Below the pieces are notes generated by a model that was given only the letters and a program-made list of their open reading frames with translations, was not told where the DNA came from and did no database searches. This document shows, one piece after another, positions 16,219 through 59,134 of a stretch of 64,000 nt of DNA. Source of the DNA: Betaproteobacteria bacterium (GTDB lineage: Bacteria > Pseudomonadota > Gammaproteobacteria > Burkholderiales > CAIKXV01); assembly GCA_947458835.1 (NCBI GenBank), contig CANHBC010000001.1, positions 11,854-75,853 on the forward strand. The letters run 5' to 3'. The translations under genes and the position numbers were made by a program. Each line of letters begins with the position of its first letter. Position 1 is the stretch's first letter.

Positions 16219-16270
16219 GGCGTCTGGAGGGACTTGCTGTTGGGTGTGCGGTCGGGAGGTGGCGTGCCGT

Positions 16271-16873: not shown

Positions 16874-16979
16874 CTGGACGGAGGAGGCGGTTCGGTTGGA
16901 GAGGGTGGCGGTGCGCTGCGAGCGGGCAGGGGCCTGTTCGTCGGTCCGGGCGGCGGGGCCGGGTCGACAGCGGGGGATG

Positions 16980-18113: not shown

Positions 18114-18212
18114 AAATGAGTTTAAAGGCTAGCAACAACTATTTGGACTGTAAAGCGTTTTATGCCTCTCGATCGCCATATAAGCGCGCCGGGAAGTCTC
18201 ATTTGCGGGTCG

Positions 18213-21236: not shown

Positions 21237-21266
21237 ATCGCCGACGTTTCGGGCAGGGCTGCGTCC

Positions 21267-22031
21267 ATGGTCGCTGAGGGCGCTGGCATGCCCGTGAGCG
21301 AGGCCGATGACCTCAGCCGGTTCCTCGTTCGCTCACTGACGCAGATCACGCAGATCCTGTCGTCGATCGCGGACGAGCGCGAGATCGTCACCGCCTACTT
21401 CAACCGCGGTCGCCATTTCGTGCTGACGGCGATTCTGGACGTCGATGTGCCGAACCGCGAGGTGGTGATCGACCGCGGGGCCGACGAGGCGATCAACGCG
21501 AAGCTGCTGGAGAGCGACCGTATCGTTCTGGTCAGCACGCACGAGAAGGTCAAGGTCCAGTTCAGCGTCAGGCGGGCGCGCGAGGTCGAGCACGAGGGGC
21601 GGCCCGCGTTCGCGATCACACTGCCGCCGGAACTGCTCAAGCTGCAGCGTCGGGAGTTCTTCCGCGTGCGTACCAGTCCGGGCGAGCCGGTGCGGGTACG
21701 CCTGCCGGTGGGGCCGTCGGAGATCATCGAACTGCAGGCGCTCGACGTGAGCATCGGCGGATTGTCTGTTTTCGTGCGCCTGCCGGCCGAGCAGAGCGCG
21801 ATCGGTTCCCGCTTCCCGGGGGGAACCCTGCAGGTCGGTACGGGCAGCACGTTCCCGGTCGAACTGGAGCTGCGAAACGTGAACGACGTGCGCCTTCGCA
21901 ACGGCGTCGACGCGACGCGCGCCGGATTCATGTTCATCGATCTCCCGGAGGCTGCCCAGCAGCAGATCCAGCGCTACCTGCTGCGGGTCGAGCGGGACCG
22001 GCGCAGCCGGGAAGCGGACCTCCGGGGCTGA
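21267..22031 (+). CDS. YcgR-like c-di-GMP receptor (PilZN + PilZ domains)
   Basis: The C-terminal PilZ motifs are RREFFR (RxxxR) and DVSIGGLS (DxSxxG). The N-terminal half, about 110 aa, resembles the YcgR N-domain. Confidence 0.8.
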   Translation: MVAEGAGMPVSEADDLSRFLVRSLTQITQILSSIADEREIVTAYFNRGRHFVLTAILDVDVPNREVVIDRGADEAINAKLLESDRIVLVSTHEKVKVQFSVRRAREVEHEGRPAFAITLPPELLKLQRREFFRVRTSPGEPVRVRLPVGPSEIIELQALDVSIGGLSVFVRLPAEQSAIGSRFPGGTLQVGTGSTFPVELELRNVNDVRLRNGVDATRAGFMFIDLPEAAQQQIQRYLLRVERDRRSREADLRG

Positions 22032-44058: not shown

Positions 44059-44097
44059 TCCGCGGGCGTACCGCACGGCCGCCTGCGGCGGCAGGGC

Positions 44098-46026
44098 TCA
44101 GGACCGGGGCCTGCCCAGGCCGAGTCGTTCCCCCAGCACCCGCATGTACTCCAGCCATCGGCTGGGCAGTGCCAGCCGTGGCCCCGATGAGCGTTCCGGC
44201 ACCTGCCGCAGTACCAGCTGCGGCGCCTGCTCGAACTGCTGGACACGCTCCAGCGCCGAGACCAGGTGGGTACGCAGCGACCTGAGCACCACCGGCTTGT
44301 TGATGAAGCGGAAGATCTGCGCCTCGTTGATCAGGCCGATGATCAGCTCGGAATCCGACGCCTCGGTGACCGCCAGCGTCAGCATCTGCGGGTGGTCCTG
44401 CTTGAGGGTCTTGATCAGGTTGGCGTTGTCCGGCGGATCGCCTGCGTCGATGTCATACAGGACGACCGAGACGTCGCCGGCCGCGAGCTCGGCCATGGCC
44501 GCTTCCGGGCCGGCCGCCTGGCGCACCGGTGCCACGTCGGCCATCAGTTCACGGGTCGAGCGGTAGAGCTCGCCGCTGGCGTCGACCACGAGGATCGCCC
44601 GGTCCGGCCTGAGCTGGACCGATGGCGGCGGCCCGAGTTCGGCCAGCTCGATCGAGACTTCCACCGCCTCGCGCACGATCGAACGCAGTTCGTTGTTGTC
44701 CCAGGGCTTGGAGACGAAGCGGTAGATCTCGCCGTCGTTGATCGAACCGACGATCGCGGCCAGGTCCGCATAGCCGGTGAGGAGGATGCGCATCGATCCC
44801 GGAGCGATCTCCTTCGCCTGGCGCAGCAGCTCGACGCCGGTCATGCCGGGCATCCGCTGGTCGCTGACGATTGCGTGCATCCGGTGGCGCGCGATGAAAG
44901 CGAGCGCATGCTCACAGTCGCTGGTCGCGAACACGTGGTAGTCGTTGCGGAACACCGACCTGAGCGCGCTCAGGATGCGCTCCTCGTCGTCCACCACCAG
45001 CAGCCGGGGCTTGTGCGCGGACGATACCGGCCGAGCCATGCCCCGAGCGCTGACGCCCGGGAAGGTGGCGCCGGGCGGCACCGTATGCTGGCGACGCGCG
45101 GCCGCCAGGCGTCGCCCGGCACCGGACAGGCCGCCTGAAGACAGGTTCGCGATCGAGGGCGCCGCATCGGCGGCAGAGGTATCGCCGGTCAGCGCCAGGC
45201 TGTCGACGATGCCCTGGGCGAACAGCACGCCGAATTCCACGGCGCTGCCGAAGCGCTCGTCGACCGGCTTGGCCAACGCGGTCAGCACGACCTCGTCGAG
45301 CGAGGCCGCGACGTTCGCGTTCAGCCGCGAGGGCGGGATCGGCAGCGTTTCGAGGTCCAGCACCTGGCGCATGATCTGCGGGGTGCCGCCACTGTAGGGC
45401 CGTATGCTGGTCAGGAGTTCGTAGGCGATCACGCCGGCCGCGTACAGGTCAGCGGCCGGCCCGGCATGCTGGCCGAGGAACTGCTCGGGCGCCATGTAGT
45501 AAGGCGTACCGAACATCTGCCCGTTCTGGGTCAGGTTGGAGGATTCGATGCGCGCGATGCCGAAGTCGCTGATCTTCAGCCGACCCTCGGCGTTGAGCAG
45601 GATGTTGGCCGGCTTGATATCCCGGTGCACCACGCCCTGGGCATGCGAGTGGGCGAGTGCGTCGAGCAGTTCCGCCATCATCCGCGCGATCTCGCGCAGG
45701 GTGAAGCGCCGCCGTGCCACGAGTTCCTGGTGCAGCGAGCGTCCCACGACGAGTTCCATCGCGATGAAGGCGATGTCGCCGTCCTCGCCGTACTCGAACA
45801 CCTGCACGATGTTCGGGTGCACCAGCCGACCGGCGGCCTGCGCCTCGCGTCTGAAGCGGTCGAGCGTGCCCGCCTGTTCGTCGATCGGCAGCGCGCTGCG
45901 ACGGATCGCCTTGATCGCGACCGCCCGCTCGATCGCGGTGTCGAAGCCACGGTAGACCATACCCATCCCGCCGCGCCCGATCGTCGCGTCGATCCGGTAC
46001 TTTCCGATCCGGTCGGGGGGCGTCAT
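44098..46026 (-). CDS. Hanks-type Ser/Thr protein kinase fused to two C-terminal receiver (REC) domains (module 1)
   Basis: 642 aa. The kinase motifs are GRGGMGMVY, VAIKAI, HRDIKPANILL, DFGIA and GTPYYMAPE. REC1 spans aa 339-455 (VVDDEE, SDQRMPGMTG, LLTGY, FVSKPW). REC2 spans aa 477-590 (VVDAS, LYDID, VTEASD, FINKPV). Confidence 0.88.
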   Translation of the reverse strand: MTPPDRIGKYRIDATIGRGGMGMVYRGFDTAIERAVAIKAIRRSALPIDEQAGTLDRFRREAQAAGRLVHPNIVQVFEYGEDGDIAFIAMELVVGRSLHQELVARRRFTLREIARMMAELLDALAHSHAQGVVHRDIKPANILLNAEGRLKISDFGIARIESSNLTQNGQMFGTPYYMAPEQFLGQHAGPAADLYAAGVIAYELLTSIRPYSGGTPQIMRQVLDLETLPIPPSRLNANVAASLDEVVLTALAKPVDERFGSAVEFGVLFAQGIVDSLALTGDTSAADAAPSIANLSSGGLSGAGRRLAAARRQHTVPPGATFPGVSARGMARPVSSAHKPRLLVVDDEERILSALRSVFRNDYHVFATSDCEHALAFIARHRMHAIVSDQRMPGMTGVELLRQAKEIAPGSMRILLTGYADLAAIVGSINDGEIYRFVSKPWDNNELRSIVREAVEVSIELAELGPPPSVQLRPDRAILVVDASGELYRSTRELMADVAPVRQAAGPEAAMAELAAGDVSVVLYDIDAGDPPDNANLIKTLKQDHPQMLTLAVTEASDSELIIGLINEAQIFRFINKPVVLRSLRTHLVSALERVQQFEQAPQLVLRQVPERSSGPRLALPSRWLEYMRVLGERLGLGRPRS

Positions 46027-47867
46027 GCAGCGGCCTTGCGGACGGCAGGCGGCGCACCCGCGCCCGAAGCACCCGTCTCCTGCGGCGCGCCGTCGCGCGG
46101 CAGGCGCACGCGGAACGTGGTGCCGAGCCCGACGCGGGAATCGACTTCGATCCGCCCGCCATGCTGGGCGATGATCTTGTAGCAGATGGACAGGCCAAGG
46201 CCGGTGCCCTGGCCGACCGCCTTGGTGGTGAAGAACGGGTCGAAGATCTTCGGCAGTACCTCCGGCGGGATGCCGGCGCCGGTGTCGATCACCTCCAGCA
46301 CGAGTTCGCGCGCATCGCCCCGCGTAGTCAGGGTGATCGTGCCGCCGGCAGGCCCGATCGCCTGCGCCGCGTTGGTGACCAGGTTGAGGAGCACCTGGTT
46401 CACCTGCGAGGGCGATCCGACGAGGTATCCGTCGGTGGTGAACTGCCGCTCGATGCGCACCGCCTTCAGCAGGTGGCGTGCGAGCTGCAGCGTGCTCTCG
46501 ATGCCCTGGTGCAGGTCGAAGCGCTGCACGCGGCCGCGGTCGAGGCGGCTGAAATCACGCAGGTGGCCGACGATCTGGGCGATCTGTTCGACCCCGTACA
46601 GACCGTCCTTCACCAGTGCGCCGAGTTCCCCGACCGACTGGCTGCCCCCGAGCGCGCGGGCGGCGTCGGACAGGGCGCCCAGTTGCCGGTCGAGCAGATC
46701 GTCGGGCGTATCGCCAGCCTCCAGCAGGGCGAGTAGCTTCTCGCAGTCGGCGGTGAGGCGGGTGAGCGCATCGAGCTGGCCGTCGACCGAACCCAGGCTG
46801 TTCTTCACGTAGGCGACCGGCGTGTTGATCTCGTGCGCGATGCCCGCCACCATCTGCCCGAGCGAGGACATCTTCTCGGACTGGATGAGCTGCGCCTCCG
46901 ACTCCTTCAGGTGCGCGAGCGCATCGGACAGCTCACGCGTGCGCTGGTCGACCTTGTGCTCGAGGTTCTCGTTCGCGGCCTGCAGCGCGCCGTTGATGCG
47001 TGCGATGACGCGGTAGCTGGCCACCAGCCGCGAGGCGATCCACGCCAGCAGCACCAGCAGCGCCGCCGAATAGAACAGCAGGTACGTCCGGTAGAGCTGC
47101 TGGCGCTCGATGACCGACTGCACCTCGGTGGTGAACGCTGTGGTCATCGCACGCAGCCGCGGGCCGGCCGGCGACAGCCCGAAGCGCAGGATCGATGATT
47201 CCAGCCCGGTCTTGCCTTCGAGGATGGCTCGGGCGGGCGCGAGGATCGCGGAATCGGCGGTCAGCCGGGCCAGCGCGGCCTCGACCGGCAGCCGTCGCCG
47301 CTCGCCGGTGTCGCCCCAGAAGGCGAGCAGTTCCGCCGCCGCTGCCTCCGCCGGGCGCAGGCCGACCATGCCCGAGGCGGCGTCCGCCTCTGCGCTGGCA
47401 ACCACCGCGGCCAGCGATTCCCGCAGGCGGGCCGCGCTCGCGCTGGCGGCCGAGCCGAGGGGCATCCGTTCCGCATAGGCAGCCGCGACGCCGGGCAGGT
47501 TGGCCGCGAGGGCGGGGCTGCCCGTGGCCGCTGCCAGCGACTGCAGCTCGGACAGTACGCGCTGGATCGACGGCACGACGGTTGCCTCGGCCTGTCGTGC
47601 CGGGCGGGAATCGGCCTTGGCCGCCGCGATCGCCAGGTCCCAGCGGGCGGTCAGTTCGTTGAGCAACTGCAGCTTCTCGCCGATCTCGACCCGCGCCCCG
47701 GCATCGGCCTCGCGGCTGTTCCAGGCGAGCCAGGCCGCCGCGGCGACCAGCAGGACGGTTGCCGCGATGTAGATCGCGGCACGCCGGCGGGGCACCGGGG
47801 CAATGTAGAGCCTTTCAGCGGTCATCATCGTATCCAGCATACCGGGCAGATCGCGCGCTCGTGCCAC
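46023..47867 (-). CDS. Membrane sensor histidine kinase (module 1), no REC or HPt domain
   Basis: 614 aa with two TM segments flanking a helical, Ala/Leu/Arg-rich region of about 250 aa. A coiled coil follows, then the H-box [11 protein letters not shown] and the HATPase_c boxes ([22 protein letters not shown]). It has a 4-nt overlap with the downstream STK-REC gene. The start could instead be an internal ATG within the first 15 codons. Confidence 0.88.
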
Positions 47868-47893
47868 CCGGCGGATCGGTCAGCACGATCGCG

Positions 47894-49813
47894 TCATGAC
47901 CCGGCTGCCAGCGGCATCGCCGCCGGCCCCGGAGGCAGCCCGGCGTCGGGCATGTCCGGGCGGGCCACGGCCGCGGCCGGCTGGTACAGCTTCGTCAGTT
48001 CGGGCGACTCGCGCAGCAACTGGGCGCGTTCCAGCGCAGCCAGCAGATGCGATCGGACCAGTTGCTGGTTAACCGGCTTGTTGAGGAACCGGAAGATCTG
48101 CGCCTGGTTGATCAGCTCGATCATCAGCTCGGAATCGGAGGCGCTGGTGACCACGATCGACAGGATGCCCGGTTTCTCGTGCTTGAGGGTCTTCAGCAGC
48201 GCGACGCCTTCGGCACCGGTGTACTCGACGTCCATCAGCACGATCGACACCGGGTGCTGGTCTATCTGGTCCATCGCCGAGTCCGCGTCCAGCGCATGGC
48301 GGATCTGGCAGACCCCGACCAGCATCTCCTTCACCGAGCGCAGGAGCTCGTAGCTCGGGTCGACGACGAGCACGGCCATCTCCTGCCTGGCCTCGGTGTT
48401 CACGCGCAGCACCCGCCGTTCGCCGACGGTCAGGCCGATCTCGACCGCCTCCTGCACGATCTGCTTCAGGTCCCGGTTGTTCCACGGCTTGTTGATGAAG
48501 CGGAAGATCTCGCCCTCGTTGATCGAGCCCACGATCGCGTTGAGGTCGGAATAGCCGGTGAGCAGCAGGCGCATCGAGGTGGGCGAAGTGATCTTGGCGC
48601 GCCGGAGCAGTTCGACGCCGAGCATCTCTGGCATGCGCTGGTCGCTGATGATCGCGTGCATGTGGAACTTCTCGACGAAGCGCAGCGCATGGCTGCAGTT
48701 GCTGGTCGCGAACACGTGGAAATCGTCGCGGAACAGCGCCTTGAGCGAGGTGAGGATACGCTCCTCGTCGTCGACCACCAGCAGCCGGGGCTTGTGCGCA
48801 GACGACACCGGGGCCGACGGCGACGGCGATGCCTGCGATCCGTAGCGCCCGGGCATCGAGGACGTGGCGCCGGTGGCATCGGCATGGCGCAGCAGTCGCG
48901 CCGCGGCCGACAGGCTGCGCGTGGTCTCGGGGCTGATCGGCAGGGGTGCCTGTACCTCGCCCACCCGCCGTAGCGTCGCCTCGATGCCGCGCTGGAATGC
49001 GGCCCGGAACTCGGCGGCGCCCTGGAATCGCTCCTCGGGCCGCTTGGCGAGCGCCTTGAGCACTGCCTGGTCGAGTTCCGGGGCGATGCGCGGATCGGCC
49101 TGGGACGGTGCGATGACCTTGACCTCCGGGTCCATCACCTGGCGCATCACGAAGGCGGTGCTGCCGGAGTACGCACGCTGCCCGGTGAGCAGTTCGTAGG
49201 CGACGGTGCCGGCGGAGTACACGTCGGTCGATGGCGTCGCCGGCGAGCCCTGGAGCAGTTCGGGCGCCATGAAGTGCGGGGTGCCCAGCGGTTCGTTGTT
49301 GACCACCATTCGGGTCGACTCGACCTGCGCGATCCCGAAGTCGGTGACCTTGACGTGTCCTTCGCTGGTGAGCAGGAGGTTCGCGGGCTTGATGTCCTGA
49401 TGGATCACGCCGTTCCTGTGCGCGTACTCCAACGCCGACAGCAACTGGTCGACGATCGATCCGATCTGCGCGAAGTCGTGGCGGCGGCGCTCCAGCAGCC
49501 GCTGGTGGAGCGTCTTTCCGGGGACCAGTTCCATCGCGATGAACGCGACTTCCGGGCTCTCGCCGTAGTCGTAGATCTGGACGATGTTCGGATGCATCAG
49601 GCGACCGGCTGCCTGTGCCTCGCGCTTGAAACGCTCCAGCACGACCATCGCCTGGTCGGGATCGAGCGCCCGCTTGATCAGCGCCTTGATCGCGACCGGA
49701 CGCTGGATGGTCGGGTCGAACGCCGAGTAGACGGTGCCCATGCCACCCCGGCCGAGGATGCCGTGCACTTCGAACTTGCCGATGGTGACGGGAATCGGGC
49801 CGGTCGTACTCAT
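47894..49813 (-). CDS. Ser/Thr protein kinase fused to two REC domains (module 2; non-RD catalytic loop HQD)
   Basis: 639 aa, a paralogue of 44098-46026. The kinase motifs are GRGGMGTVY, VAIKAL, HQDIKPANLLL, DFGIA and GTPHFMAPE. REC1 has VVDDEE, SDQRMPEMLG, LLTGY and FINKPW. REC2 has VVDPS, LMDVE, VTSASD and FLNKPV. Confidence 0.88.
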   Translation of the reverse strand: MSTTGPIPVTIGKFEVHGILGRGGMGTVYSAFDPTIQRPVAIKALIKRALDPDQAMVVLERFKREAQAAGRLMHPNIVQIYDYGESPEVAFIAMELVPGKTLHQRLLERRRHDFAQIGSIVDQLLSALEYAHRNGVIHQDIKPANLLLTSEGHVKVTDFGIAQVESTRMVVNNEPLGTPHFMAPELLQGSPATPSTDVYSAGTVAYELLTGQRAYSGSTAFVMRQVMDPEVKVIAPSQADPRIAPELDQAVLKALAKRPEERFQGAAEFRAAFQRGIEATLRRVGEVQAPLPISPETTRSLSAAARLLRHADATGATSSMPGRYGSQASPSPSAPVSSAHKPRLLVVDDEERILTSLKALFRDDFHVFATSNCSHALRFVEKFHMHAIISDQRMPEMLGVELLRRAKITSPTSMRLLLTGYSDLNAIVGSINEGEIFRFINKPWNNRDLKQIVQEAVEIGLTVGERRVLRVNTEARQEMAVLVVDPSYELLRSVKEMLVGVCQIRHALDADSAMDQIDQHPVSIVLMDVEYTGAEGVALLKTLKHEKPGILSIVVTSASDSELMIELINQAQIFRFLNKPVNQQLVRSHLLAALERAQLLRESPELTKLYQPAAAVARPDMPDAGLPPGPAAMPLAAGS

Positions 49814-49856
49814 CTGGATCGCGTGGGTGATGCGTGGAAGGCGTCGCCGGGGCTGC

Positions 49857-51821
49857 TCACGGCGCCTGCAGGGCTGCCTGCCGGGCGGGGCGTTCGTCGG
49901 GCGCGGCCGGGGCCGGCGTGGACGGCGCAGCGTCCGCGGGCGCCTCGGCCGGCTTGGCCTGGCTGGCCGGCAGCAGCACGGTGAACGTGGTGCCTTCGCC
50001 CAGGCGCGAGTGCACGAGAATCTTGCCCCTGTGCTGGTCGATGATCTTGAACGAGATCGACAGCCCGAGCCCGGTGCCCTTGCCGGTCTCCTTGGTGGTG
50101 AAGAACGGATCGAAGATCCGCGGCAGCACCTCGGGCGGGATGCCGCGGCCGTTGTCGCGCACTTCCACCATCACGCTGTGGCCCACCGCCCGGGTGGTCA
50201 GCGTGATCTGCCCGCCCGGGCCGCGCTCCTCGAGCACCTGCGCGGCATTCGTGACCAGGTTGAGGAACACCTGGTTCACCTGCGAGGCGGCGCAGACCAC
50301 CGGTGGCAGCTTGCCGAAGGACTTGCGCACCTCGATGCCCTTGAGCAGGTGCCGGGCGAGCAGCAGCGTGCTCTCCAGGCCCTGGTTCACGTCGAACACC
50401 TGCACCTTGAGCCGGTCGAGGCGGCTGAAGTCCTTCAGGTTGACCACGATCTCGGCGATCCGGTCGATGCCGTGCAGGCCGTCCTGCACCAGCAGCGCGA
50501 GCTCGCCCAGCGTGTTGCGGTCGCGCAGCGTCTCGATGTCGCGGTCGACCCGGCTGAACTGGTCGCGCAGCTGGTCCTCGGGCGTGTCGGTGGACTGCAG
50601 CATCCGAAGCAGCCGGTCGAAGTGCTCGACCAGGTCGACCAGCGAGCCCAGGCGGTCGTCGACCATCCCGAGGTTGTTCTTGACGTAGGCCAGGGGCGTG
50701 TTGATCTCGTGCGCGACGCCGGCGACCATCTGGCCCAGCGATGACATCTTCTCGGACTGGATCAGCTGCGTCTCCGACTGCTGCAGTTCGGCCAGCGCGC
50801 TGGACAACTCCTGGGTGCGCGCGGTGACCCGCCGGTCGAGCGATTCGTTGACGTCCTGAAGCTGTGCGTTCGTGCGGTTGAGCATGCGGTAGCTCAGCGC
50901 GAGGCGCCAGCCGACGAAGCCGAGCAGGGCGAGCAGTGCGGCTGCATACCAGATGAGCACCGTACGGTAGCGCTGCTGTTCGGCGCCCGCAGCGCGCAGT
51001 TCGGTCTCGAACCCGTCGATCACCTGATCGAGTTCGCGCCCGGCGGTGGACTCCGAGACCACCTTCAGCAGGTCGGCCGACAGCTGGCGCCGCCCGATCA
51101 CTTCACGGCCCAGCTTGACCAGAGCATCGCGCGCGCCGGCGAGCCGGGCGCTGGCGTCGTCGGGGCGGGCCTCGTCGATGCCGGCGAGTGCGGCGTTGAT
51201 CGCGCGCGCGCGCTCGGACGAGCCGTCGACCACGAACGCACCGAGCTCCGCCGCTGCCTGCGTGGCCACGCGCTCGAGGTCGAGCAGGTTGCGCTGGGTC
51301 GCGGCGTCGACCGCCCGGGCCGGGCGCAGCGCGGAAACGTACTCGACGAACCACTGCTGCACTTGAGGCAGGCTGGTGGTGATGAAGTTCGACTCCGCCA
51401 GGAATCTCACCGTCACCGCGTTCTTTTCCTGGAACGCGCCGATCATGTCAGGCAGGCGCTCTCGCAGCGTCTCCGACGGCAGCCGTGTGGCCGACTGCTG
51501 CAGCGCGCGGAGCGTCTTGCCGACGGTAGGCACGAGGTTGACCGCAGACTCGTATCCGCGTTCGGTATCGGTGGTCGCGCGCAGGAGAATGGTGTCCCAG
51601 CGTGCCTCGAGCTCCTTCAGTGCGCGCAGCTGGCCGCTGATCTCGACCACGGCGCGTTCGTCGAGCGGGCGCGTCTTCCAGTACACGAAGCCGAGCGCGC
51701 CCAGCAGCAGCGCGGTGACCGCCGCGGCCGCGGCCACGCGCGGCCAGCCGTTCGCCGGGCGGTCGGTCCGGGATGCCGGGGATCCGTCGGGCTTTGCAGT
51801 GCGAAGGGGCAGTCGGAACAC
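49857..51821 (-). CDS. Membrane sensor histidine kinase (module 2), paralogue of 46023-47867
   Basis: 654 aa with a GTG start. It has the same architecture as module 1: two TM segments, a helical sensor region, the H-box AGVAHEINTPL, and the HATPase_c boxes [15 protein letters not shown] and GTGLGLS. Confidence 0.88.
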   Translation of the reverse strand: MFRLPLRTAKPDGSPASRTDRPANGWPRVAAAAAVTALLLGALGFVYWKTRPLDERAVVEISGQLRALKELEARWDTILLRATTDTERGYESAVNLVPTVGKTLRALQQSATRLPSETLRERLPDMIGAFQEKNAVTVRFLAESNFITTSLPQVQQWFVEYVSALRPARAVDAATQRNLLDLERVATQAAAELGAFVVDGSSERARAINAALAGIDEARPDDASARLAGARDALVKLGREVIGRRQLSADLLKVVSESTAGRELDQVIDGFETELRAAGAEQQRYRTVLIWYAAALLALLGFVGWRLALSYRMLNRTNAQLQDVNESLDRRVTARTQELSSALAELQQSETQLIQSEKMSSLGQMVAGVAHEINTPLAYVKNNLGMVDDRLGSLVDLVEHFDRLLRMLQSTDTPEDQLRDQFSRVDRDIETLRDRNTLGELALLVQDGLHGIDRIAEIVVNLKDFSRLDRLKVQVFDVNQGLESTLLLARHLLKGIEVRKSFGKLPPVVCAASQVNQVFLNLVTNAAQVLEERGPGGQITLTTRAVGHSVMVEVRDNGRGIPPEVLPRIFDPFFTTKETGKGTGLGLSISFKIIDQHRGKILVHSRLGEGTTFTVLLPASQAKPAEAPADAAPSTPAPAAPDERPARQAALQAP

Positions 51822-51969
51822 GGGCAGCGGACCTTTCGGAGCGTGCAGAATTAACGGATTGCCCCGCGCGGACTTGAGAAAGCAGCGAAACTTCTTAAGA
51901 AATGAGCGCCGCGCAGCTTAGGCTAATGAGAAATCCCAGTCCAGCATCGCCCGCCGGAGCGGGCCGTCG

Positions 51970-52407
51970 ATGACCGATCCCGGTGCCCTGAGCCTGCTTT
52001 TCCTGTCCGCCCTCGCAGCCGCCACCGTGCTGCCCATGCAATCCGAAGCGGTGTTGGTGGCGCTGCTGATCGCTGGCCAGCAGCACCCCTGGCTGCTGGT
52101 GGGGGTGGCGACCGTCGGTAACGTGCTCGGTTCGATCCTCAACTGGTGGCTGGGCAGGACCTTCGAGCGCTACCGTGACCGGCGCTGGTTCCCGGCCAGC
52201 GGCCAGTCGCTGGACCGGGCGGCCGCCTGGTACCGGCGCCATGGGCGCTGGTCGCTGCTGCTCAGCTGGGTGCCGGTGATCGGGGATCCGCTGACCGTGG
52301 TTGCCGGCGTGTTGCGCGAACCGCTGGCGAGCTTCGTGTTGCTGGTCACGGTGGCGAAGGCGGGCCGCTACCTCGTGCTCGCGTTCGGCACCCTTGCCAT
52401 CGCCTGA
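51970..52407 (+). CDS. yqaA: YqaA/DedA-type (SNARE-associated) small membrane protein
   Basis: 145 aa with four predicted TM helices and the motif LLLSWVPVIGDPLTVVAGVLR. Confidence 0.75.
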   Translation: MTDPGALSLLFLSALAAATVLPMQSEAVLVALLIAGQQHPWLLVGVATVGNVLGSILNWWLGRTFERYRDRRWFPASGQSLDRAAAWYRRHGRWSLLLSWVPVIGDPLTVVAGVLREPLASFVLLVTVAKAGRYLVLAFGTLAIA

Positions 52408-52431: not shown

Positions 52432-53136
52432 TTATTCGCCGAGGTAGGCCCGCCGGACCGCGTCGCTGGTCAGCAGCCCTTCGGACGGGCCCGACAGGGT
52501 GACCTCGCCGCTCTCGAGCACGTAGGCGCGCGCCGCGAGTTCGAGGGCCGCGCGCGCGTTCTGCTCGACCAGCAGGATCGACACCCGTTCGGCCGCGATC
52601 GCGCGGATGGTGTCGAAGATCAGCCGTGTGACCAGCGGCGCCAGCCCCATGCTCGGTTCATCGAGCAGCAGCAGCCGCGGTCGTGCCATCAGTGCGCGGG
52701 CGATCGCGAGCATCTGCTGCTCGCCGCCCGACAGGGTGCCTGCGAGTTGGCTACGTCGCTCGGCGAGGCGGGGGAACAGCGCGTAGTTGCGCGCGAGATC
52801 GGCCCGTACGCCGACGGGGTCGCGCCGCAGGTACGCACCCATGTCGAGGTTCTCGGCCACGGTCAGGCGGGCGAAGATGCCGCGTCCCTCCGGCACCAGG
52901 CTCATTCCGCGGCCTACCCGCTGGTGTACCGGCACGCGGGTGATGTCCTCGCCATCGAGCAGGATGCTGCCGGCACGCACCGGCAGTGCGCCCGCGATGC
53001 CGTTGAGCGTGGTGGTCTTGCCCGCACCGTTGGCCCCGATCACCGCGACCAGTTCCCCCGGGGACACCTCGAGGTCGAGATCGCGCACGGCTGAGATCGC
53101 GCCGTAGCCGAGCTGCAGCGAACGTACCGACAGCAT
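52432..53136 (-). CDS. livF: Branched-chain amino-acid ABC transporter ATP-binding protein LivF
   Basis: Trimmed to MLSVRSLQLGYG at 53136. It has the Walker A GANGAGKTT, the signature LSGGEQQM and the Walker B LLLLDEPS. Confidence 0.9.
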   Translation of the reverse strand: MLSVRSLQLGYGAISAVRDLDLEVSPGELVAVIGANGAGKTTTLNGIAGALPVRAGSILLDGEDITRVPVHQRVGRGMSLVPEGRGIFARLTVAENLDMGAYLRRDPVGVRADLARNYALFPRLAERRSQLAGTLSGGEQQMLAIARALMARPRLLLLDEPSMGLAPLVTRLIFDTIRAIAAERVSILLVEQNARAALELAARAYVLESGEVTLSGPSEGLLTSDAVRRAYLGE

Positions 53137-53972
53137 CAGGCTACCCCCGGCAGGCCGAGGGCAGTGTCGCCCTCGGCGTGGCTCGCGGGCCTGGCATCTT
53201 CCGCCGGCGCTCCGAGGTAGGCCTCGATCACCGCCGGATCGCGCTGCACCTGCGCCGGCGTGCCTTCGGCGATCAACTCGCCGCGGTCGAGGACCGCCAC
53301 CCGGTCGCACAGGCCCATCACCAGCCGCACGTCATGCTCGATCAGCAGCACCGTCGTGCCGTCGTCGCGCAACTTGACGATCAGTTCGCTCAGCGATGCC
53401 GTTTCCGAGGCGTTCATCCCGGCCGCCGGTTCGTCGAGTGCGACCAGCCGGGGGCTGCTCGCCAGTGCGCGGGCGATCTCCAGGCGGCGCTGCAGCCCGT
53501 AGGGCAGGCTGCCAGCCGGATGGTCCGCCCAGGCGGCGACCGACACTCGTTCCAGCAGTGCATGGGCCTCGGCCTCGAGCCTGGCCTCCTCGTCGCGTAC
53601 CCGGCGCGTGCGCAGCACCGCACCCAGTGCGCCCGCTCTGCTGCGCGTATGCATGCCGACCATCACGTTCTCCAGTGCGCTCATCTGGTGGAACAGCCGG
53701 ATGTTCTGGAACGTACGTGCCACCCCGAGCTGCACGACCCGGTGCACCGGCTCCCCGGTCAACCGGGTGCCATCGAGCATGCAGCCGCCGCTGTCGGGCT
53801 GGATGAACCCGGTCACCACGTTGAACAGCGTCGTCTTGCCTGCGCCGTTGGGTCCGATCAGGCCGTACACGGCGCCCTGCGGTACCTCGAACGACACGCC
53901 GGACAACGCCTTCACGCCACCGAAGGCCTTGCTGATGCCCTGCACCGTGAGCAGCGGGCCTGCTGTGCTCAC
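53136..53972 (-). CDS. livG: Branched-chain amino-acid ABC transporter ATP-binding protein LivG
   Basis: The GTG start forms a GTGA overlap with livM. It has the Walker A GPNGAGKTT, LPYGLQRRLEIARAL and LVALDEPAAG. Confidence 0.9.
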   Translation of the reverse strand: MSTAGPLLTVQGISKAFGGVKALSGVSFEVPQGAVYGLIGPNGAGKTTLFNVVTGFIQPDSGGCMLDGTRLTGEPVHRVVQLGVARTFQNIRLFHQMSALENVMVGMHTRSRAGALGAVLRTRRVRDEEARLEAEAHALLERVSVAAWADHPAGSLPYGLQRRLEIARALASSPRLVALDEPAAGMNASETASLSELIVKLRDDGTTVLLIEHDVRLVMGLCDRVAVLDRGELIAEGTPAQVQRDPAVIEAYLGAPAEDARPASHAEGDTALGLPGVA

Positions 53973-55126
53973 GGCCGGGGCTCCGGTCCTGTCGAGGCAG
54001 ATCCGCCGGCCGCTGGCGCGGCGGCGAACTCGCGCCGGCGCACCGGCGAGGGCCAGAGGCCGGCGGGCCGCCAGCGCATGACCAGCACCAGCGCGATGCC
54101 GAACAGCAGCAGCCGCAGGTCGGACGGCTCGACCATCACCTGCCCGAACAGCGATCGCTGCATCGGGCCTATGTAGCGCAGCGCCTCGGGCAGGGCCACG
54201 AGCAGCACGGCCCCCAGCACGACCCCGCGCACATGGCCCATCCCGCCAAGCACGACCATGCAGAGCACCATGATCGATTCCATCAGCCCGAAGCTCTCGG
54301 GGCTGACGAAGCCCTGGAAGCTGGCATACAGGCTGCCCGCAATGCCGCCGAAGCTCGCGCCCAGCGCGAACGCGAGCAGCTTCAGGTTGCGGGTGTTGAC
54401 GCCGGATGCGCTCGCCGCCAGTTCGTCCTCGCGGATCGCCACCCAGGCGCGCCCGACGCGTGAATGCTGCAACCGGATCGACACGAACACCACCAGCAGC
54501 GTCAGTGCGAGGAACAGGTAGTAGTAGTTGTACAGGGCCGGAATCGACAGCGGCCCGATCGAATGCACCTGGGCCATCGACACGCCGGCGACCTCGATCG
54601 GCCGGACCATGGTGATCCCCTGCGGGCCGTTGGTCAGGTTGATCGGTGCGTTCAGGTTGTTGAGGAAGATGCGGATGATTTCGCCGAACCCGAGCGTGAC
54701 GATCGCGAGATAGTCGCCGCGCAGCTTGAGCGTCGGCGCGCCGAGCAGCACGCCGAACACGCCGGCGAGCACGGCAGCCGCGGGCAGCAGCAGCCAGAAC
54801 GGCAGGTACAGGCCGAAGTGCGGCGAGGCGCACAGCGCATACAGGTAGGCACCGACCGCGAAGAACGCGATGTAGCCGAGGTCGAGCAGGCCGGCGAAGC
54901 CGACGACGATGTTCAGTCCGAGGGCGAGCATCGTGTACAGCATCACCAGGTCGAGCACCCGTACCCAGGCGCGTCCGAGCAGTGCGTCGACCAGGAACGG
55001 CGCGAGCAGCAGCGCGGCCACGGCCAGCGCCAGCACCATGCCGCGGGCGAGTGGCGAGGCGGAAGCCCCGGCGGCAGACGGCACCAGCGGCAGCCGCAGT
55101 GCCTGAATGAACAGCCACCTACGCAC
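53969..55126 (-). CDS. livM: Branched-chain amino-acid ABC transporter permease LivM
   Basis: A 385-aa polytopic permease with GLNIVVGFAGLLDLGYIAFF. It overlaps the livH stop by 8 nt. Confidence 0.88.
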   Translation of the reverse strand: MRRWLFIQALRLPLVPSAAGASASPLARGMVLALAVAALLLAPFLVDALLGRAWVRVLDLVMLYTMLALGLNIVVGFAGLLDLGYIAFFAVGAYLYALCASPHFGLYLPFWLLLPAAAVLAGVFGVLLGAPTLKLRGDYLAIVTLGFGEIIRIFLNNLNAPINLTNGPQGITMVRPIEVAGVSMAQVHSIGPLSIPALYNYYYLFLALTLLVVFVSIRLQHSRVGRAWVAIREDELAASASGVNTRNLKLLAFALGASFGGIAGSLYASFQGFVSPESFGLMESIMVLCMVVLGGMGHVRGVVLGAVLLVALPEALRYIGPMQRSLFGQVMVEPSDLRLLLFGIALVLVMRWRPAGLWPSPVRRREFAAAPAAGGSASTGPEPRP

Positions 55127-56042
55127 GGTCGGCCACCCGCTCGCCGAGCAGGCCGGAGGGACGGAACACCAGCACGAGGATCAGCACCGCGAACGCGAAC
55201 ACGTCCTGATAGTGGCTGCCGAGGAAGCCGCCGGTGAGGGCGCCGATGTAGCCCGCCCCGAGGCTCTCGATCACGCCGAGCGCCAGGCCGCCGAGCATTG
55301 CGCCCGAGACGTTGCCGATGCCGCCCAGCACGGCGGCTGTGAACGCCTTGAGCCCGAGCATGAAACCCATGTAGTAGTGGGCCTGGCCGTAGTAGCCGGC
55401 GATCATGATGCCGGCCACCGCCGCCAGCGCCGAGCCGAGCATGAACGTGAGCATGATGATCCGGTTCACGTCCACGCCCATCAGGCCGGCGAGCGCCGGG
55501 CTCTGCGAGGTGGCGCGCATCGCCCGACCGAGCCGGGTGCGGTTGATCAGCAGCAGTAGCGCGCCCATCAGCGATACCGTCAGCGCGACGATCAGCAGCT
55601 GGGTACCGGTGACCGTGGCGCCGAGGAAGGCATGCGGCTCGTTGGGCAGCAGCGGCGGGAACGACAGGTACTGCCGTCCCCAGGCGATCATCGCCAGGTT
55701 CTGCAGGACGATCGACATGCCGATCGCGGTGATCAGCGCGGTCAACCGGGGCGCATCGCGCAGCGGCCGGTACGCGACCCGCTCAAGCAGGGCGCCGAGC
55801 AGCATGCACGCCGGGATGGAGACCGCCACGCCGGCCAGCAGGACGATCGGCGCCGGCAGGCCGCCGGTGCCGATCGCCAGGACCACCGAGATCGCGACCA
55901 TGGCCCCGATCATCACGACCTCGCCATGCGCGAAGTTGATCAGGCCCAGGATGCCGTAGACCATCGTGTAGCCGAGCGCGACCAGCGCATAGATGCTGCC
56001 GAGCACGATGCCGTTGATCAGCTGCTGGATGAAGATGTCGAT
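55119..56042 (-). CDS. livH: Branched-chain amino-acid ABC transporter permease LivH (apparent non-canonical ATC start)
   Basis: The conserved N-terminus (I)DIFIQQLINGIVLGSIYALVALGYTMVYG begins at 56042. GGAGA lies 7 nt upstream. No ATG, GTG or TTG is in frame between the livK stop (56131) and this point. Confidence 0.85.
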   Translation of the reverse strand: MDIFIQQLINGIVLGSIYALVALGYTMVYGILGLINFAHGEVVMIGAMVAISVVLAIGTGGLPAPIVLLAGVAVSIPACMLLGALLERVAYRPLRDAPRLTALITAIGMSIVLQNLAMIAWGRQYLSFPPLLPNEPHAFLGATVTGTQLLIVALTVSLMGALLLLINRTRLGRAMRATSQSPALAGLMGVDVNRIIMLTFMLGSALAAVAGIMIAGYYGQAHYYMGFMLGLKAFTAAVLGGIGNVSGAMLGGLALGVIESLGAGYIGALTGGFLGSHYQDVFAFAVLILVLVFRPSGLLGERVADRA

Positions 56043-56130
56043 CGGTCGGTCTCCGCGAATGAAAACGCCACCGGTGGCACGGACCGTGGTCCGTGCGCCG
56101 GCGGTGACAGGATATTCCCCGTTTGCGGGG

Positions 56131-57417
56131 TTACTTCGACGGTGCCGAGGTCGGTGCCGGGGCAGGAGCCGCCGGGGCCGCAGCCGGTGCGGCGGCGGGA
56201 GCCGGATTCGCCGCAGGCGCCGGGGCCGGGGCGCCGCCAATGGTCTCGAGTGCGACCCACGTATCGCCCTTCACCACGTACATCGTCACGCCGCCGGCCT
56301 TGATGTCGCCCTTCTCGTCGAACGAGAGGTTTCCGGTCACGCCCTGGCGGTCGATCTTCGCCAGCGCCTCGAGGATCTTCGCCGGCGCAGCGGAGCCGGC
56401 CGCCTTGATCGCGTCGATGACCGTCCAGGTCGCGTCATAGGCAAGCGGGGCGTAGATCTGGATCTCGCCGAACTTCGCCTTGAACCTCGATGCGAAGGCT
56501 TCGCCGCCGGGCATCTTCTCGACCGGCAGGCCGGGCGAGGAAGCGATCACGCCCTGGGCTGCTGCGCCGGCCAGCTTGATGAACTGCGCGCTCTGGGCGC
56601 CGTCGCCTCCGAGCAGCTTGACGCCGAGCCGCAGCGTGCGGACCTGTTCGGCCATCGGACCGAACTGTGCGTCCATGCCGCCAAAGAACACCAGGTCGGG
56701 CTTCTTGCCGCGCAGCGAGGTCAGGATGGCGCGGAAGTCAGTCGCCTTGTCGTTCGTGTACTCGCGTCCCACGATGGTGCCGCCGGCTGCCTTCGCTGCC
56801 TTCTCGAACTCGTCGGCCAGCCCCTGGCCGTACGCGGTCCGGTCATCGATGATCGCGATGCGCTTGCTGGCCAGTTGCCGGACCGCGTACTCGCCGAGTG
56901 CCTTGCCCTGCTGCAGGTCGTTGGCGATCACGCGGAACGTGGTCCTGAAGCCCTGCCCGGTATAGGCGACGGCGGTCGCAGACGGCGACACCTGCGGGAT
57001 GCCGGCGTCGCTGTAGATGCGCGAGGCGGGGATGCTCGCCCCGGAATTCATGTGGCCCACCACCGCCACCACCTTCTTGTCGACGAACGACTGCGCGACC
57101 ACCGTGGCCTTGGTGCCGGAGGCTTCGTCGTCCTCGACCGCCAGCTCGAACCGGACCCTCGCGCCGCCGATCATGATGTTCGCCGCGTTGGCTTCCTCGA
57201 CCGCCAGTCGGGCCCCGTTCTCGACGTCCTTGCCCAGATGCGCCTGCGGACCGGTCAGCGGCGCGGACACGCCGATCGTCACGGTGACTTCGGCGGGCGG
57301 CTTCGGTGCCTCCGCGACCGGCTTGGGCGGCTCTTCCTTGCTGCAGCCGGCAACGATCAGTGCGGCGGTCGCGGCCAGCGCGAACGTGCGCGCCACGCGG
57401 TGGAACAGTCGGGCCAT
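56131..57417 (-). CDS. livK: Branched-chain amino-acid ABC transporter substrate-binding lipoprotein (LivK family)
   Basis: Trimmed to MARLFHRV...LIVAGC (lipobox) at 57417, with AGGAGA as SD. It has a type-I periplasmic binding fold and a C-terminal Pro/Ala tail of about 35 aa. Confidence 0.88.
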   Translation of the reverse strand: MARLFHRVARTFALAATAALIVAGCSKEEPPKPVAEAPKPPAEVTVTIGVSAPLTGPQAHLGKDVENGARLAVEEANAANIMIGGARVRFELAVEDDEASGTKATVVAQSFVDKKVVAVVGHMNSGASIPASRIYSDAGIPQVSPSATAVAYTGQGFRTTFRVIANDLQQGKALGEYAVRQLASKRIAIIDDRTAYGQGLADEFEKAAKAAGGTIVGREYTNDKATDFRAILTSLRGKKPDLVFFGGMDAQFGPMAEQVRTLRLGVKLLGGDGAQSAQFIKLAGAAAQGVIASSPGLPVEKMPGGEAFASRFKAKFGEIQIYAPLAYDATWTVIDAIKAAGSAAPAKILEALAKIDRQGVTGNLSFDEKGDIKAGGVTMYVVKGDTWVALETIGGAPAPAPAANPAPAAAPAAAPAAPAPAPTSAPSK

Positions 57418-57456
57418 CTTCTTCTCCTGGGGGGGCAGCCGGTGGGCGGGAGCCGC

Positions 57457-57485
57457 ATTATCGCCCTGCGGCAGCATGCCGAGAA
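57457..57485 (-). promoter_or_regulatory. Sigma70-like promoter candidate for the liv operon (TTCTCG-N17-GATAAT)
   Basis: On the minus strand the -35 is at 57485-57480 and the -10 at 57462-57457. It lies downstream of the cytochrome c551 terminator and about 40 nt upstream of the livK ATG. Confidence 0.4.
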
Positions 57486-57512
57486 GGGGCTGGTCCGGCT
57501 GCTGACGGTCCC

Positions 57513-57543
57513 GGAAAGAAAAAAGCCGGCGTTGGGCCGGCTT
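57513..57543 (-). terminator. Rho-independent terminator of the cytochrome c551 gene
   Basis: The minus strand reads AAGCCGGC-CCAAC-GCCGGCTT followed by TTTTCTTTCC. It begins 25 nt after the TAA stop. Confidence 0.8.
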
Positions 57544-57568
57544 CGAAGGGTGTCCGTGTTCGGGACTA

Positions 57569-57919
57569 TTACTTGATCGTCATGATGTAGCGCACCATCG
57601 AGCGGATATCCGCCTCGGCGATATGCTTGTGCGGAGGCATCGGGATCTGGCCCCAGACGCCGCCGCCACCGTTCACGACGTGTGCTACCACCTTGTCTTC
57701 CGCGCCCTTGACGCCTGCGTACTTCTTGGCGACATCGGCGTAGGACGGGCCGACGACCTTCTTGTCCGCGGCGTGGCAGGCGAGGCATCCGCTCTTGGCG
57801 AGCAGATCCTTGCCGGAAGCCGGGCTCGCGGGCGCCGCCTTGGCCTGAGCAAAGGCACCGGACACGGCGCCGGCGGACAGCATCGCGGCAACCGCGATCG
57901 AACCAACCCAGTTCTTCAT
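57569..57919 (-). CDS. Class I monohaem cytochrome c (c551/c8 type)
   Basis: 116 aa with a signal peptide, the haem site CLACH and the Met-ligand region GVWGQIPMPP. It is collinear with Pseudomonas cytochrome c551. Confidence 0.92.
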   Translation of the reverse strand: MKNWVGSIAVAAMLSAGAVSGAFAQAKAAPASPASGKDLLAKSGCLACHAADKKVVGPSYADVAKKYAGVKGAEDKVVAHVVNGGGGVWGQIPMPPHKHIAEADIRSMVRYIMTIK

Positions 57920-58055: not shown

Positions 58056-59012
58056 TCAGAGCTCGCTCAGCATGCGCTCGTAGATGAACAGCTGCAGCGC
58101 GTTACGCTGCGGCTTCGGCAACTCGGCGAACTCCAGGCCGCAGGCGCGGAAGTGGCTGGACGCCTCTTCCGGGTCACGCGCGTTGCGGATCGCGCCCGGC
58201 ACGTCGAAGGTGAGCGGCTCGCCGCCCACCTGCAGGCGGAAGGCCACCTCGACCGCGGTACCGACGACCGCCATTTCACGCGGCACGAGCACCAGCATGC
58301 CGGCGATGCTCAGGTCTTTGACGTTGCAGGCCACGCGCGCGCGCTCCCCGGCGCGCCCGACCGAAGCGACCGCGTTGATCATGATCCGGTGCGCCTTGCG
58401 CACGGTCGTGCAGCGCACCTGGCCCGGGAACGTCAGGTGCAGGTAAGGGTAGGGCGCCAGCTGGCATTTCAGGACGGAAGTGTCGAAGCTGTAGGCGAAC
58501 TTGCCGCGCAGCGCCTTGATCTTCACCTGCTGGCCTTCGCGCAGGTGGGTCATGCGGCCGTCGACGACCGGGTGGCTGACCAGCAGGCTGCGCTTGTCCA
58601 CTGCACCGATCAGCCGGATCGGATAGCGGTCCGCGCTCCCGTCGTCGAAGCGCAGCTGCATCGGGTCGCCCATGCGCAGCGTGGTCTCCAGGAACGGGAC
58701 CAGGGTGCCCTCGCCCAGGTCGGCCGCGGCAACCGCGACCGGCAGGCTGTCGACGGCCGGCCGCCGCTCCTCGCTTTCGTTCGCGGCGATGCGTGGGCCC
58801 ATCACCGAGGGCCGGTAGAGCAGCCCGCGGGCGCTGCCCGCCGGTTTCGACTCGTCGCTGAACATGCCCTGCTCGCGCAGGACATGCAGGACGGTTTCCG
58901 ATTCGACGACGCAGCCGTGGCCGAGCAGCAGTACCCGGTCCTTGTCGTAGACCGAGTAGGGAATGGGCTTGCCGAGCTGCAGGTCTTCCTTGCGCAGCGG
59001 TAGGAGTGGCAT
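58056..59012 (-). CDS. PilZ-domain c-di-GMP-binding protein with an extended N-terminal region
   Basis: 318 aa. The C-terminal PilZ motifs are RKAHR (RxxxR) and DLSIAGM (DxSxxG). The N-terminal part, about 200 aa, is unassigned. Confidence 0.75.
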   Translation of the reverse strand: MPLLPLRKEDLQLGKPIPYSVYDKDRVLLLGHGCVVESETVLHVLREQGMFSDESKPAGSARGLLYRPSVMGPRIAANESEERRPAVDSLPVAVAAADLGEGTLVPFLETTLRMGDPMQLRFDDGSADRYPIRLIGAVDKRSLLVSHPVVDGRMTHLREGQQVKIKALRGKFAYSFDTSVLKCQLAPYPYLHLTFPGQVRCTTVRKAHRIMINAVASVGRAGERARVACNVKDLSIAGMLVLVPREMAVVGTAVEVAFRLQVGGEPLTFDVPGAIRNARDPEEASSHFRACGLEFAELPKPQRNALQLFIYERMLSEL

Positions 59013-59134
59013 GGTCAGGGGTCCGGAAACTGCCGAGACCCCAGATAACGGCGAAAGCCGATCCGAACTTTAGCGGACCCGTGCCACTCCGACGGCGTGC
59101 CGACCCGGCCGCGCGGCCGGTCGGCACCCGTGGA

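Follow-up and report, generated by a model that had tools for sequence, protein, structure and literature searches.

Can a bacterial two-component signal be handed directly to a eukaryotic-type protein kinase? The question is raised by four genes on the minus strand of a betaproteobacterial chromosomal fragment of 64,000 nucleotides (here called the window; GC content, ~69%), which lie between positions 44098 and 51821 and encode two histidine kinases (HKs) and two proteins in which a Hanks-type Ser/Thr kinase (STK) is followed by two receiver (REC) domains. In bacteria, kinases of this type and two-component systems are mostly treated as separate networks, and the crosstalk documented between them in bacteria runs from STK to response regulator (RR). 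On balance, we lean toward the view that the four genes specify two paralogous two-component pathways, in which the RR appears to carry a Hanks-type kinase where a DNA-binding domain would be usual and in which the signal would pass from the HK to the acceptor Asp of the first receiver (REC1) and from there to the kinase. Ser/Thr phosphorylation would then probably be under the direct control of a two-component signal.

Two HK/STK-REC-REC pairs in one gene cluster

In the order of transcription, the four co-directional open reading frames (ORFs) are HK-A (49857 to 51821; 654 amino acids [aa]), STK-A (47894 to 49813; 639 aa), HK-B (46023 to 47867; 614 aa with GTG 47867 as the start codon, 600 aa with ATG 47825), and STK-B (44098 to 46026; 642 aa); these ORFs and all of their domains given below are on the minus strand. 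HK-A and HK-B were called HK2 and HK1, respectively, in an earlier interpretation made from the letters alone (the sequence-only reading). The arrangement described there, with spacers of 43 nt between HK-A and STK-A and of 26 nt between STK-A and HK-B, followed by a 4-nt overlap (ATGA) of the HK-B stop and STK-B start codons, was found again in the ORF listing and by direct reading of the sequence. The second spacer becomes 68 nt if HK-B begins at ATG 47825, as the public gene call of the contig has it (ENA ERZ27280125 k141_1649126, to part of which the window is identical); the same record calls an identical 654-aa gene for HK-A.

The kinase domain is catalytically complete

Both STK proteins matched the Pfam Pkinase model (E values of 1e-50 to 1e-53) as well as two Response_reg stretches each, as had been predicted. 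No transmembrane (TM) segment was found in either protein by a hydropathy scan, and both are predicted to be cytoplasmic. The kinase domain covers aa 14 to 264 of STK-A (49022 to 49774; Lys43 in VAIK, DFG at 158) and aa 10 to 262 of STK-B (45241 to 45999; Lys39). A full set of Hanks motifs had been claimed for both, and the Gly-loop, VAIK, DFG, and APE motifs are indeed present; however, the catalytic loop of STK-A reads HQD (non-RD, with Gln139) instead of the HRD of STK-B (RD type), and the activation-loop Thr that STK-B carries in LTQ, aligned with T171 of PknB, is missing from STK-A.

Conservation was assessed in 118 full-length homologs, 47 to 100% identical to STK-B. K39 (VAIK), E61 (αC), the catalytic D136 and N141, the Asp and Gly of DFG, and the Pro and Glu of APE were present in 118/118, and Gly-loop residues G17 and G19 were likewise invariant. 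With all catalytic residues invariant in this set, a pseudokinase was rejected; an assembly or fusion artifact was rejected as well, since the same ORFs are intact in many independent metagenome-assembled genomes (MAGs). STK-A and its 15 orthologs (n = 16) all have HQD in place of HRD and all lack a Thr aligned with PknB T171, whereas every one of the RD-type sequences (n = 102) keeps that Thr, which makes for a perfect correlation with HRD. Module B, with its RD kinase and activation-loop Thr, seems to represent the ancestral type; module A has turned into a non-RD kinase, which should be independent of activation-loop phosphorylation.

The kinase domain is nearest to mycobacterial PknA and PknB and to StkP (E values of 1e-45 to 1e-47 by sequence), and its fold compares with that of PknB at a Foldseek target TM-score of ~0.9. 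Residues R10, L33, and D76 of the PknB back-to-back dimer interface correspond here to K9, I32, and D/E78, which are invariant in the RD and non-RD types. Searches of the PDB by sequence and by fold returned kinase-domain matches only and no solved chain covering kinase plus REC; among the NCBIfam models, none reached its cutoff for any of the four proteins.

A canonical and a probably degenerate receiver on a disordered linker

REC1 occupies aa 343 to 455 of STK-A (48449 to 48787), with acceptor Asp391 in SDQRMP, and aa 341 to 453 of STK-B (44668 to 45006), with D346, D347, acceptor D389, T417, and K440. The latter five residues, which align with D12, D13, D57, T87, and K109 of CheY, are each found in 118/118 homologs, and the aromatic switch residue at K-3 is kept too. 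In NCBIfam comparisons, REC1 resembled the receivers of AtoC/NtrC/ZraR and RpfG.

The second receiver (REC2; aa 481 to 600, 48014 to 48373 in STK-A; aa 478 to 598, 44233 to 44595 in STK-B) is of a different quality. The sequence-only reading had listed two receivers, and two Response_reg stretches there are, but only REC1 is canonical: at the position of CheY D13, the second metal-binding acid, REC2 has Pro (a DP instead of a DD pair in STK-A, with Asp528 kept) or Ala (following D482 in STK-B, with D525, T554, and K577 kept). The equivalents of CheY D57, T87, and K109 are kept in 117, 117, and 116 of the 118 sequences, respectively. Because the D13 equivalent is missing, REC2 is probably a degenerate receiver that acts as an adaptor. 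When STK-A and STK-B are compared domain by domain, REC1 is the best conserved (68% identity), ahead of the kinase (51%) and REC2 (46%).

These are also the only receivers nearby, as had been stated from the sequence: family-specific hidden Markov models run against a six-frame translation of the window found no further REC, HK, or Hanks-kinase domain, and Pfam scans of the window genes judged real found no PP2C, FHA, or DNA-binding RR, the absence of which had also been noted.

Between kinase and REC1 lies a disordered linker (~aa 285 to 340 in STK-A; aa 283 to 335 in STK-B, with AlphaFold 2 [AF2] pLDDT values below 50). In the AF2 model, confident domains (pLDDT, ~82 to 90; kinase, ~88) are thus joined by ~50 disordered residues, a picture that would fit tethered regulation without proving it. 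Most of the linker is variable, with the exception of an LxxAARLL-like motif (L in 94%, A in 97%, and R in 92% of the 118 sequences), located at aa 300 to 307 of STK-B (~45106 to 45129) and in the equivalent stretch of STK-A, which might serve in docking or autoinhibition.

The partner HKs

For the HKs, the proposed combination of two TM segments with HisKA and HATPase_c domains was supported by Pfam (HisKA/HATPase_c E values of 1e-28 to 1e-29) and by a hydropathy scan, in which the TM segments of both proteins flank a domain of ~215 to 240 residues. It is between TM1 and TM2 that the DAHL model (PF19443) matched both HKs, with 41.3 bits for HK-A (cutoff, 38) and with 34.8 bits, under the cutoff, for HK-B. 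HK-A consists of TM1 (aa 29 to 47; 51681 to 51737), a periplasmic DAHL-like domain (aa 60 to 286; 50964 to 51644), TM2 (aa 287 to 310; 50892 to 50963), a coiled-coil linker in which Pfam found no HAMP match, HisKA (aa 362 to 408) with the H-box AHEINTP and, by motif, the phospho-accepting His371 (50709 to 50711), and HATPase_c (aa 513 to 620; 49962 to 50285). HK-B follows the same plan, with TM1 at aa 30 to 48, the DAHL-like sensor at aa 61 to 260, TM2 at aa 264 to 288, His345 in the same AHEINTP H-box (46833 to 46835; again by motif), and HATPase_c at aa 486 to 591 (46095 to 46412). The N, G1, F, and G2 boxes are readable in both translations. Over their whole length, the two HKs are 46% identical; the sensor is less similar (33%) than the cytoplasmic part (58%), which was AtoS/ZraS-like in NCBIfam comparisons, so that the class of the HKs matches that of REC1 (AtoC/NtrC/ZraR-like). 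To judge by these motifs, HK-A and HK-B, as well as the kinase and REC1 of their STK partners, look catalytically competent.

DAHL was also recorded for the partner HKs at related loci L036, L040, and L041. At L040 (3213 to 4208), the gene for a CCP_MauG diheme peroxidase overlaps the start of the DAHL HK gene, which points to an input of another kind (redox) in that lineage.

HK and STK-REC-REC form a conserved cassette

Wherever the upstream sequence of a related locus could be read, the STK-REC-REC gene was immediately preceded by an HK gene, with a single exception (L014, the sole orphan STK-REC-REC gene found among them). This arrangement recurs in at least six distinct genomic contexts, and the stop and start codons of the two genes frequently overlap. 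Because the adjacency recurs in unrelated contexts, it is not due to chance: HK and STK-REC-REC constitute a conserved two-gene cassette.

In a tblastn search of related loci with the four proteins, eight MAGs or contigs (L003 to L008, L012, and L041) had all four genes clustered in the chromosomal slot that they occupy in the window, with STK-B identities ranging from 62% to 85%. More distant relatives, whose STKs are 33 to 51% identical to those of the window, have a single HK/STK-REC-REC pair, either in the same slot as in the window (L016) or elsewhere: L013, L015, L036/L037 (ferritin/miaB), L039 (liv on one side and GGDEF-EAL on the other), and L040 (MauG/SDR). At L038, the upstream ORF is truncated at the contig end, yet it matches the C terminus of an HK. 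No third conserved gene accompanies the cassette across the contexts compared. A 92-aa ORF without a Pfam match does lie just downstream of STK-REC-REC at L036 (10035 to 10313) and L037 (7399 to 7677), two independent contigs of one distant lineage, and is absent from the window.

All carriers of the cassette are MAGs or metagenome contigs of uncultured freshwater and soil bacteria, the named ones being labeled Burkholderiales or Betaproteobacteria. Similarly, a 90%-identity protein collection contained at least 120 clusters with Pkinase plus Response_reg, the named ones being labeled as Burkholderiales, Betaproteobacteria, or Pseudomonadota metagenome/MAG proteins. Among the best 150 representatives of a 50%-identity cluster library, 19 had the kinase-REC1-REC2 architecture, and most others were multi-kinase-domain proteins; the kinase-REC1-REC2 representatives that we looked up were all metagenomic. 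No cultured organism with this architecture was found in the protein cluster libraries, by plasmid tblastn, or among genome contigs, the last of these scanned with a single protein query that reached close relatives only. One lake MAG with the same four-gene cluster at 83% identity (L005; CAMDXD010000005.1) is labeled "Bordetella parapertussis," a public taxonomic assignment that is probably wrong.

Duplication of the pair and divergence at the expected contact surfaces

In neighbor-joining trees, whether of the cytoplasmic part of the HKs or of the STKs, A and B form monophyletic clades that match gene position. Since these clades are concordant in the HK and STK trees, the pair was evidently duplicated as a unit, and the tandem duplication is lineage specific. 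Fixed differences between A and B are found just after the H-box (LAYVKNNLGM versus [IV]AYVKNSLGS) as well as in α1 of REC1 and the loop following its acceptor Asp ([NT]SLKALF...PEMLG versus [ST]AL[KR]SVF...PGM[TAN]G). The region after the H-box His, REC1 α1, and the post-Asp loop are what we take, from the work of the Laub laboratory, to be the contact surfaces that set HK-RR specificity. Differences at these surfaces would be consistent with, although not proof of, the pattern expected of insulation after duplication.

Comparison with known systems

No characterized bacterial Hanks kinase under receiver control was found in the full-text literature searched; Galperin's RR censuses (2006, 2010) were outside that search and may list the architecture. 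To that extent, the suggestion that this wiring is without a known example holds, but the concept has precedents in Ssk1-Ssk2, Rim15, and HsbR.

The cassette would work as a two-component system whose output is enzymatic. Its nearest bacterial analog is HsbR (PA3346) of Pseudomonas aeruginosa, a REC-PP2C-Ser/Thr kinase protein fed by HptB, where a His-Asp relay sets the balance of Ser/Thr phosphorylation of a target via an enzyme-fused receiver, with both phosphatase and kinase activity under REC control. The HsbR kinase domain, however, is an anti-sigma-factor kinase of the RsbW/HATPase type and not a Hanks-type eukaryotic-like protein kinase. HsbR has, moreover, a PP2C domain, an N-terminal REC, and a single dedicated substrate (HsbA), none of which applies to the window proteins; Pfam found no PP2C/SpoIIE or HATPase_c match in STK-A or STK-B, which are not of the HsbR type.

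Among tandem-receiver proteins, the closest analog is Caulobacter PleD (REC-pseudoREC-GGDEF), in which the first receiver is phosphorylated and the second is a degenerate adaptor. PleD is activated by phosphorylation-mediated dimerization via its receiver/pseudo-receiver pair, the enzyme requiring two subunits. It differs in that its output is a C-terminal diguanylate cyclase, as opposed to an N-terminal protein kinase, and in that the acceptor Asp, the Thr, and the Lys are retained in REC2 of the window STKs.

With PknB, PknA, and StkP, the window STKs share the best sequence and fold matches of the kinase domain, the dimer-interface residues, and, in module B, the activation-loop Thr. Unlike those kinases, they lack TM and PASTA segments and have a cytoplasmic REC-REC part instead of an extracellular sensor; the PknB_PASTA model (NF033483) scored 286 bits against a cutoff of 450, over the kinase domain only and with no PASTA match, which argues against membership of the PASTA family. 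Cyanobacterial HstK/cbSTKIII proteins (STK-GAF-HisKA-HATPase in one polypeptide) also couple a Hanks kinase to two-component machinery, but there the STK is fused to the HK through GAF, whereas the window has a separate membrane HK, receivers on the STK, and no GAF. As for the anti-phage families PD-T4-6, MADS6, and PglW, full-length matches combined with a defense-island context were not found. By their domain content, the window STKs are therefore placed outside the PASTA-kinase, HsbR, HstK, and defense-kinase families.

In fungi, His-Asp control of eukaryotic-type kinases is already textbook knowledge. In the yeast Sln1-Ypd1-Ssk1 pathway, a His-Asp phosphorelay controls the eukaryotic-type mitogen-activated protein kinase kinase kinases Ssk2/Ssk22, with the difference that Ssk1 acts on Ssk2 in trans. 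Fungal Rim15 has the same kinase-then-receiver order as the window proteins, but its kinase is of the Greatwall type and its receiver, the role of which is apparently unstudied, often lacks the acceptor Asp. Both are eukaryotic systems that use an HPt intermediate and are not operon encoded. The cassette, for its part, is conserved and uncharacterized in the literature searched.

Finally, Candidatus Chlorohelix allophototropha, a culturable phototroph, encodes a protein (WP_341472197; Pkinase-REC-GerE) in which a Hanks kinase is also N-terminal to a receiver and the gene of which lies 45 nt downstream of an HK gene; it was the only match in the plasmid tblastn search. The pair (L042 783 to 6578; plasmid NZ_CP128402.1) includes an HK of 1373 aa with a β-propeller (PD40) and HisKA_3, a class that matches the NarL-type receiver. 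The protein differs from the window STKs in belonging to the Chloroflexota, in being only 30% identical over aa 10 to 450, and in having a single REC plus a LuxR-type helix-turn-helix output; it is uncharacterized. Fusion of a Hanks kinase to a receiver, beside a matching HK, has thus also taken place in another, distantly related lineage, independently and with a domain architecture of its own.

Proposed mechanism and alternatives

Starting from the observed architecture, residue conservation, and gene linkage, we infer the following path. The membrane HK would sense a periplasmic cue via its DAHL-like double helical-bundle domain and autophosphorylate on His371 (HK-A) or His345 (HK-B). The phosphoryl group would then move to the REC1 Asp of the protein encoded next downstream, i.e., Asp391 of STK-A or Asp389 of STK-B. 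Phosphorylated REC1, together with REC2 as a probably degenerate adaptor of the PleD kind, would alter the oligomerization or the autoinhibition of the protein and thereby switch the PknB-like kinase. We prefer a switch in which REC-driven dimerization joins the N-lobes back to back, as ligand-driven dimerization does for PknB, although relief of autoinhibition would be equally allowed. The active kinase would subsequently phosphorylate Ser/Thr substrates that are presumably encoded elsewhere in the genome.

Several observations weigh against this scheme. The domain order is unusual, with the output N-terminal to REC, while most RRs are REC first. In the Chloroflexota protein, a Hanks kinase is joined to an RR that already has an output of its own, and in such fusions the kinase need not be the output. 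Structurally, the AF2 model, with a pTM of 0.52 and no confident interdomain packing, leaves autoinhibition and dimerization without support. The paralog-specific interface differences are drawn from few, closely related sequences. Lastly, the orphan STK-REC-REC gene at L014 (7962 to 9908) has no adjacent HK; upstream of it are a GST gene and ORFs lacking a Pfam match.

The alternative that survives best reverses the roles or lets the inputs converge: the REC1-REC2 module would be the output, acting via protein-protein interaction as stand-alone tandem-receiver regulators do, and the Hanks kinase would be a second input that phosphorylates the receivers or the partner HK on Ser/Thr. A His-Asp and a Ser/Thr signal would then be integrated in one protein. 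The direction of the crosstalk documented in bacteria speaks in its favor (reviews list WalR, CovR, DosR, VraR, and others as STK targets), as does DrdR, a tandem-receiver protein without an output domain that works by binding PilB/PilT. The Chlorohelix protein, in which the kinase precedes a complete NarL-type RR (REC-GerE) beside a HisKA_3 HK, also speaks for it, and the window proteins likewise have their kinase N-terminal to the RECs. On the other hand, HK control of the kinase accounts equally well for the pairing of HK with REC1 and for a REC1 that is canonical throughout, no conserved Ser/Thr acceptor site was identified in REC1 or REC2, and no conserved neighbor gene hints at a binding target for REC-REC. 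The retained PknB-type dimer-interface residues and the activation-loop Thr of module B are, moreover, features of a regulated effector kinase. We regard this reversal as a serious rival, albeit a rather unlikely one, while noting that, if true, it would make the cassette a fused "Rosetta stone" for STK-to-RR crosstalk.

Could the STK-REC-REC proteins instead serve as a phosphate sink that drains or buffers phosphoryl groups of HKs signaling mainly to a conventional RR elsewhere? Other RRs are possible in the genome beyond the window, and the L014 protein exists without an adjacent HK. A sink, however, has no need of an invariant, catalytically complete kinase domain of 270 residues, and the two-gene unit occurs in at least six contexts, often translationally coupled, without a third conserved gene, all of which makes this explanation improbable.

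Still less probable, in our view, is a phosphorylation-independent scaffold, in which the RECs would be constitutive dimerization or docking modules and the HK adjacency would reflect coregulation. It could draw on the missing metal-binding acid of REC2, on the published finding that pseudo-receivers are common in bacteria, and on published Rim15 receivers of Ascomycota without an acceptor Asp; the five catalytic residues of REC1, conserved in 118/118, together with its aromatic switch residue, are nevertheless hard to explain without phosphorylation chemistry. An anti-phage defense kinase (of the PD-T4-6, Stk2, or MADS6 type) that merely happens to lie beside HKs is very hard to believe in: although the PADLOC PD-T4-6 and mad6 models (up to 281 bits) and NCBIfam MADS6 (160 bits, against a cutoff of 460) do match, the matches are limited to the generic kinase domain (aa 8 to 292) and are no better than those of PknB-family models (285 bits), an HK with a periplasmic sensor is a conserved partner, and the cluster occupies a conserved housekeeping slot (liv ... 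hemF-purD-purH-fis-dusB) without mobile or defense genes.

Returning to the HK-to-REC1-to-kinase pathway, we also considered a hierarchy of the two modules, in which STK-A, independent of activation-loop phosphorylation and switched through REC1 by HK-A alone, would phosphorylate either HK-B or the activation-loop Thr of STK-B, so that full output would require both periplasmic signals. This is a speculative extension to which we give little credence; if true, two Hanks kinases, each under His-Asp control, would form a kinase cascade or AND gate within one bacterial operon. More generally, there could be no simpler system than this conserved two-gene cassette, with its canonical receiver joined to a PknB-like kinase that is catalytically complete, for asking whether and how an aspartyl-phosphate gates a eukaryotic-type kinase, be it by dimerization or by relief of autoinhibition. 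The proteins are soluble and of tractable size, and the RD/non-RD pair of paralogs provides a built-in comparison. For synthetic biology, the cassette would route periplasmic sensing into Ser/Thr phosphorylation.

Flanking regions and neighboring genes

The four-gene operon presumably has its promoter in the 148-nt divergent intergenic region between HK-A and a VTT/DedA gene (51822 to 51969), where a promoter/terminator consensus scan found no sigma-70 consensus match. At the other end, hemF (plus strand) and STK-B converge on a gap of 39 nt (44059 to 44097). Within this gap lies a GC-rich hairpin (gccgcc-tgc-ggcggc) without a T-run, which the consensus scan had missed and which is a possible bidirectional terminator.

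Beyond the VTT/DedA gene (51970 to 52407, plus strand), five genes (52432 to 57579, minus strand) encode a LivKHMGF-like ABC transporter. A urea (Urt) identity was first assumed for this transporter and was dropped, as NCBIfam prefers Liv over Urt models, none of which reaches its cutoff. At L016, L039, and L041, a Liv-type transporter is encoded directly upstream of the HK, on the same strand and with nothing between, the window having the VTT/DedA gene inserted. Because a Liv-type transporter lies upstream of the HK at these three loci and in the window, there is a hint of a link between the DAHL sensor and amino acid or nitrogen supply.

On the other flank, the genes hemF, purD, purH, and dusB and a fis-like gene run toward the kinase cluster, and the other genes of the window are housekeeping genes as well (priA, hemE, gltBD, aroK, pilMNOPQ, mrcA, hemB, thiD, surA, lptD, pdxA, ilvD, and lgt). 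Burkholderiales are indicated by the order dusB-fis-purH-purD-hemF in combination with the labels of related sequences. The window also contains two genes for YcgR-like PilZ-domain proteins (21237 to 22031, plus strand; 58056 to 59069, minus strand) and, as the pilMNOPQ genes, a type IV pilus cluster (12870 to 18128, minus strand); neither the pilus nor the PilZ genes show a link to the kinase cassette.

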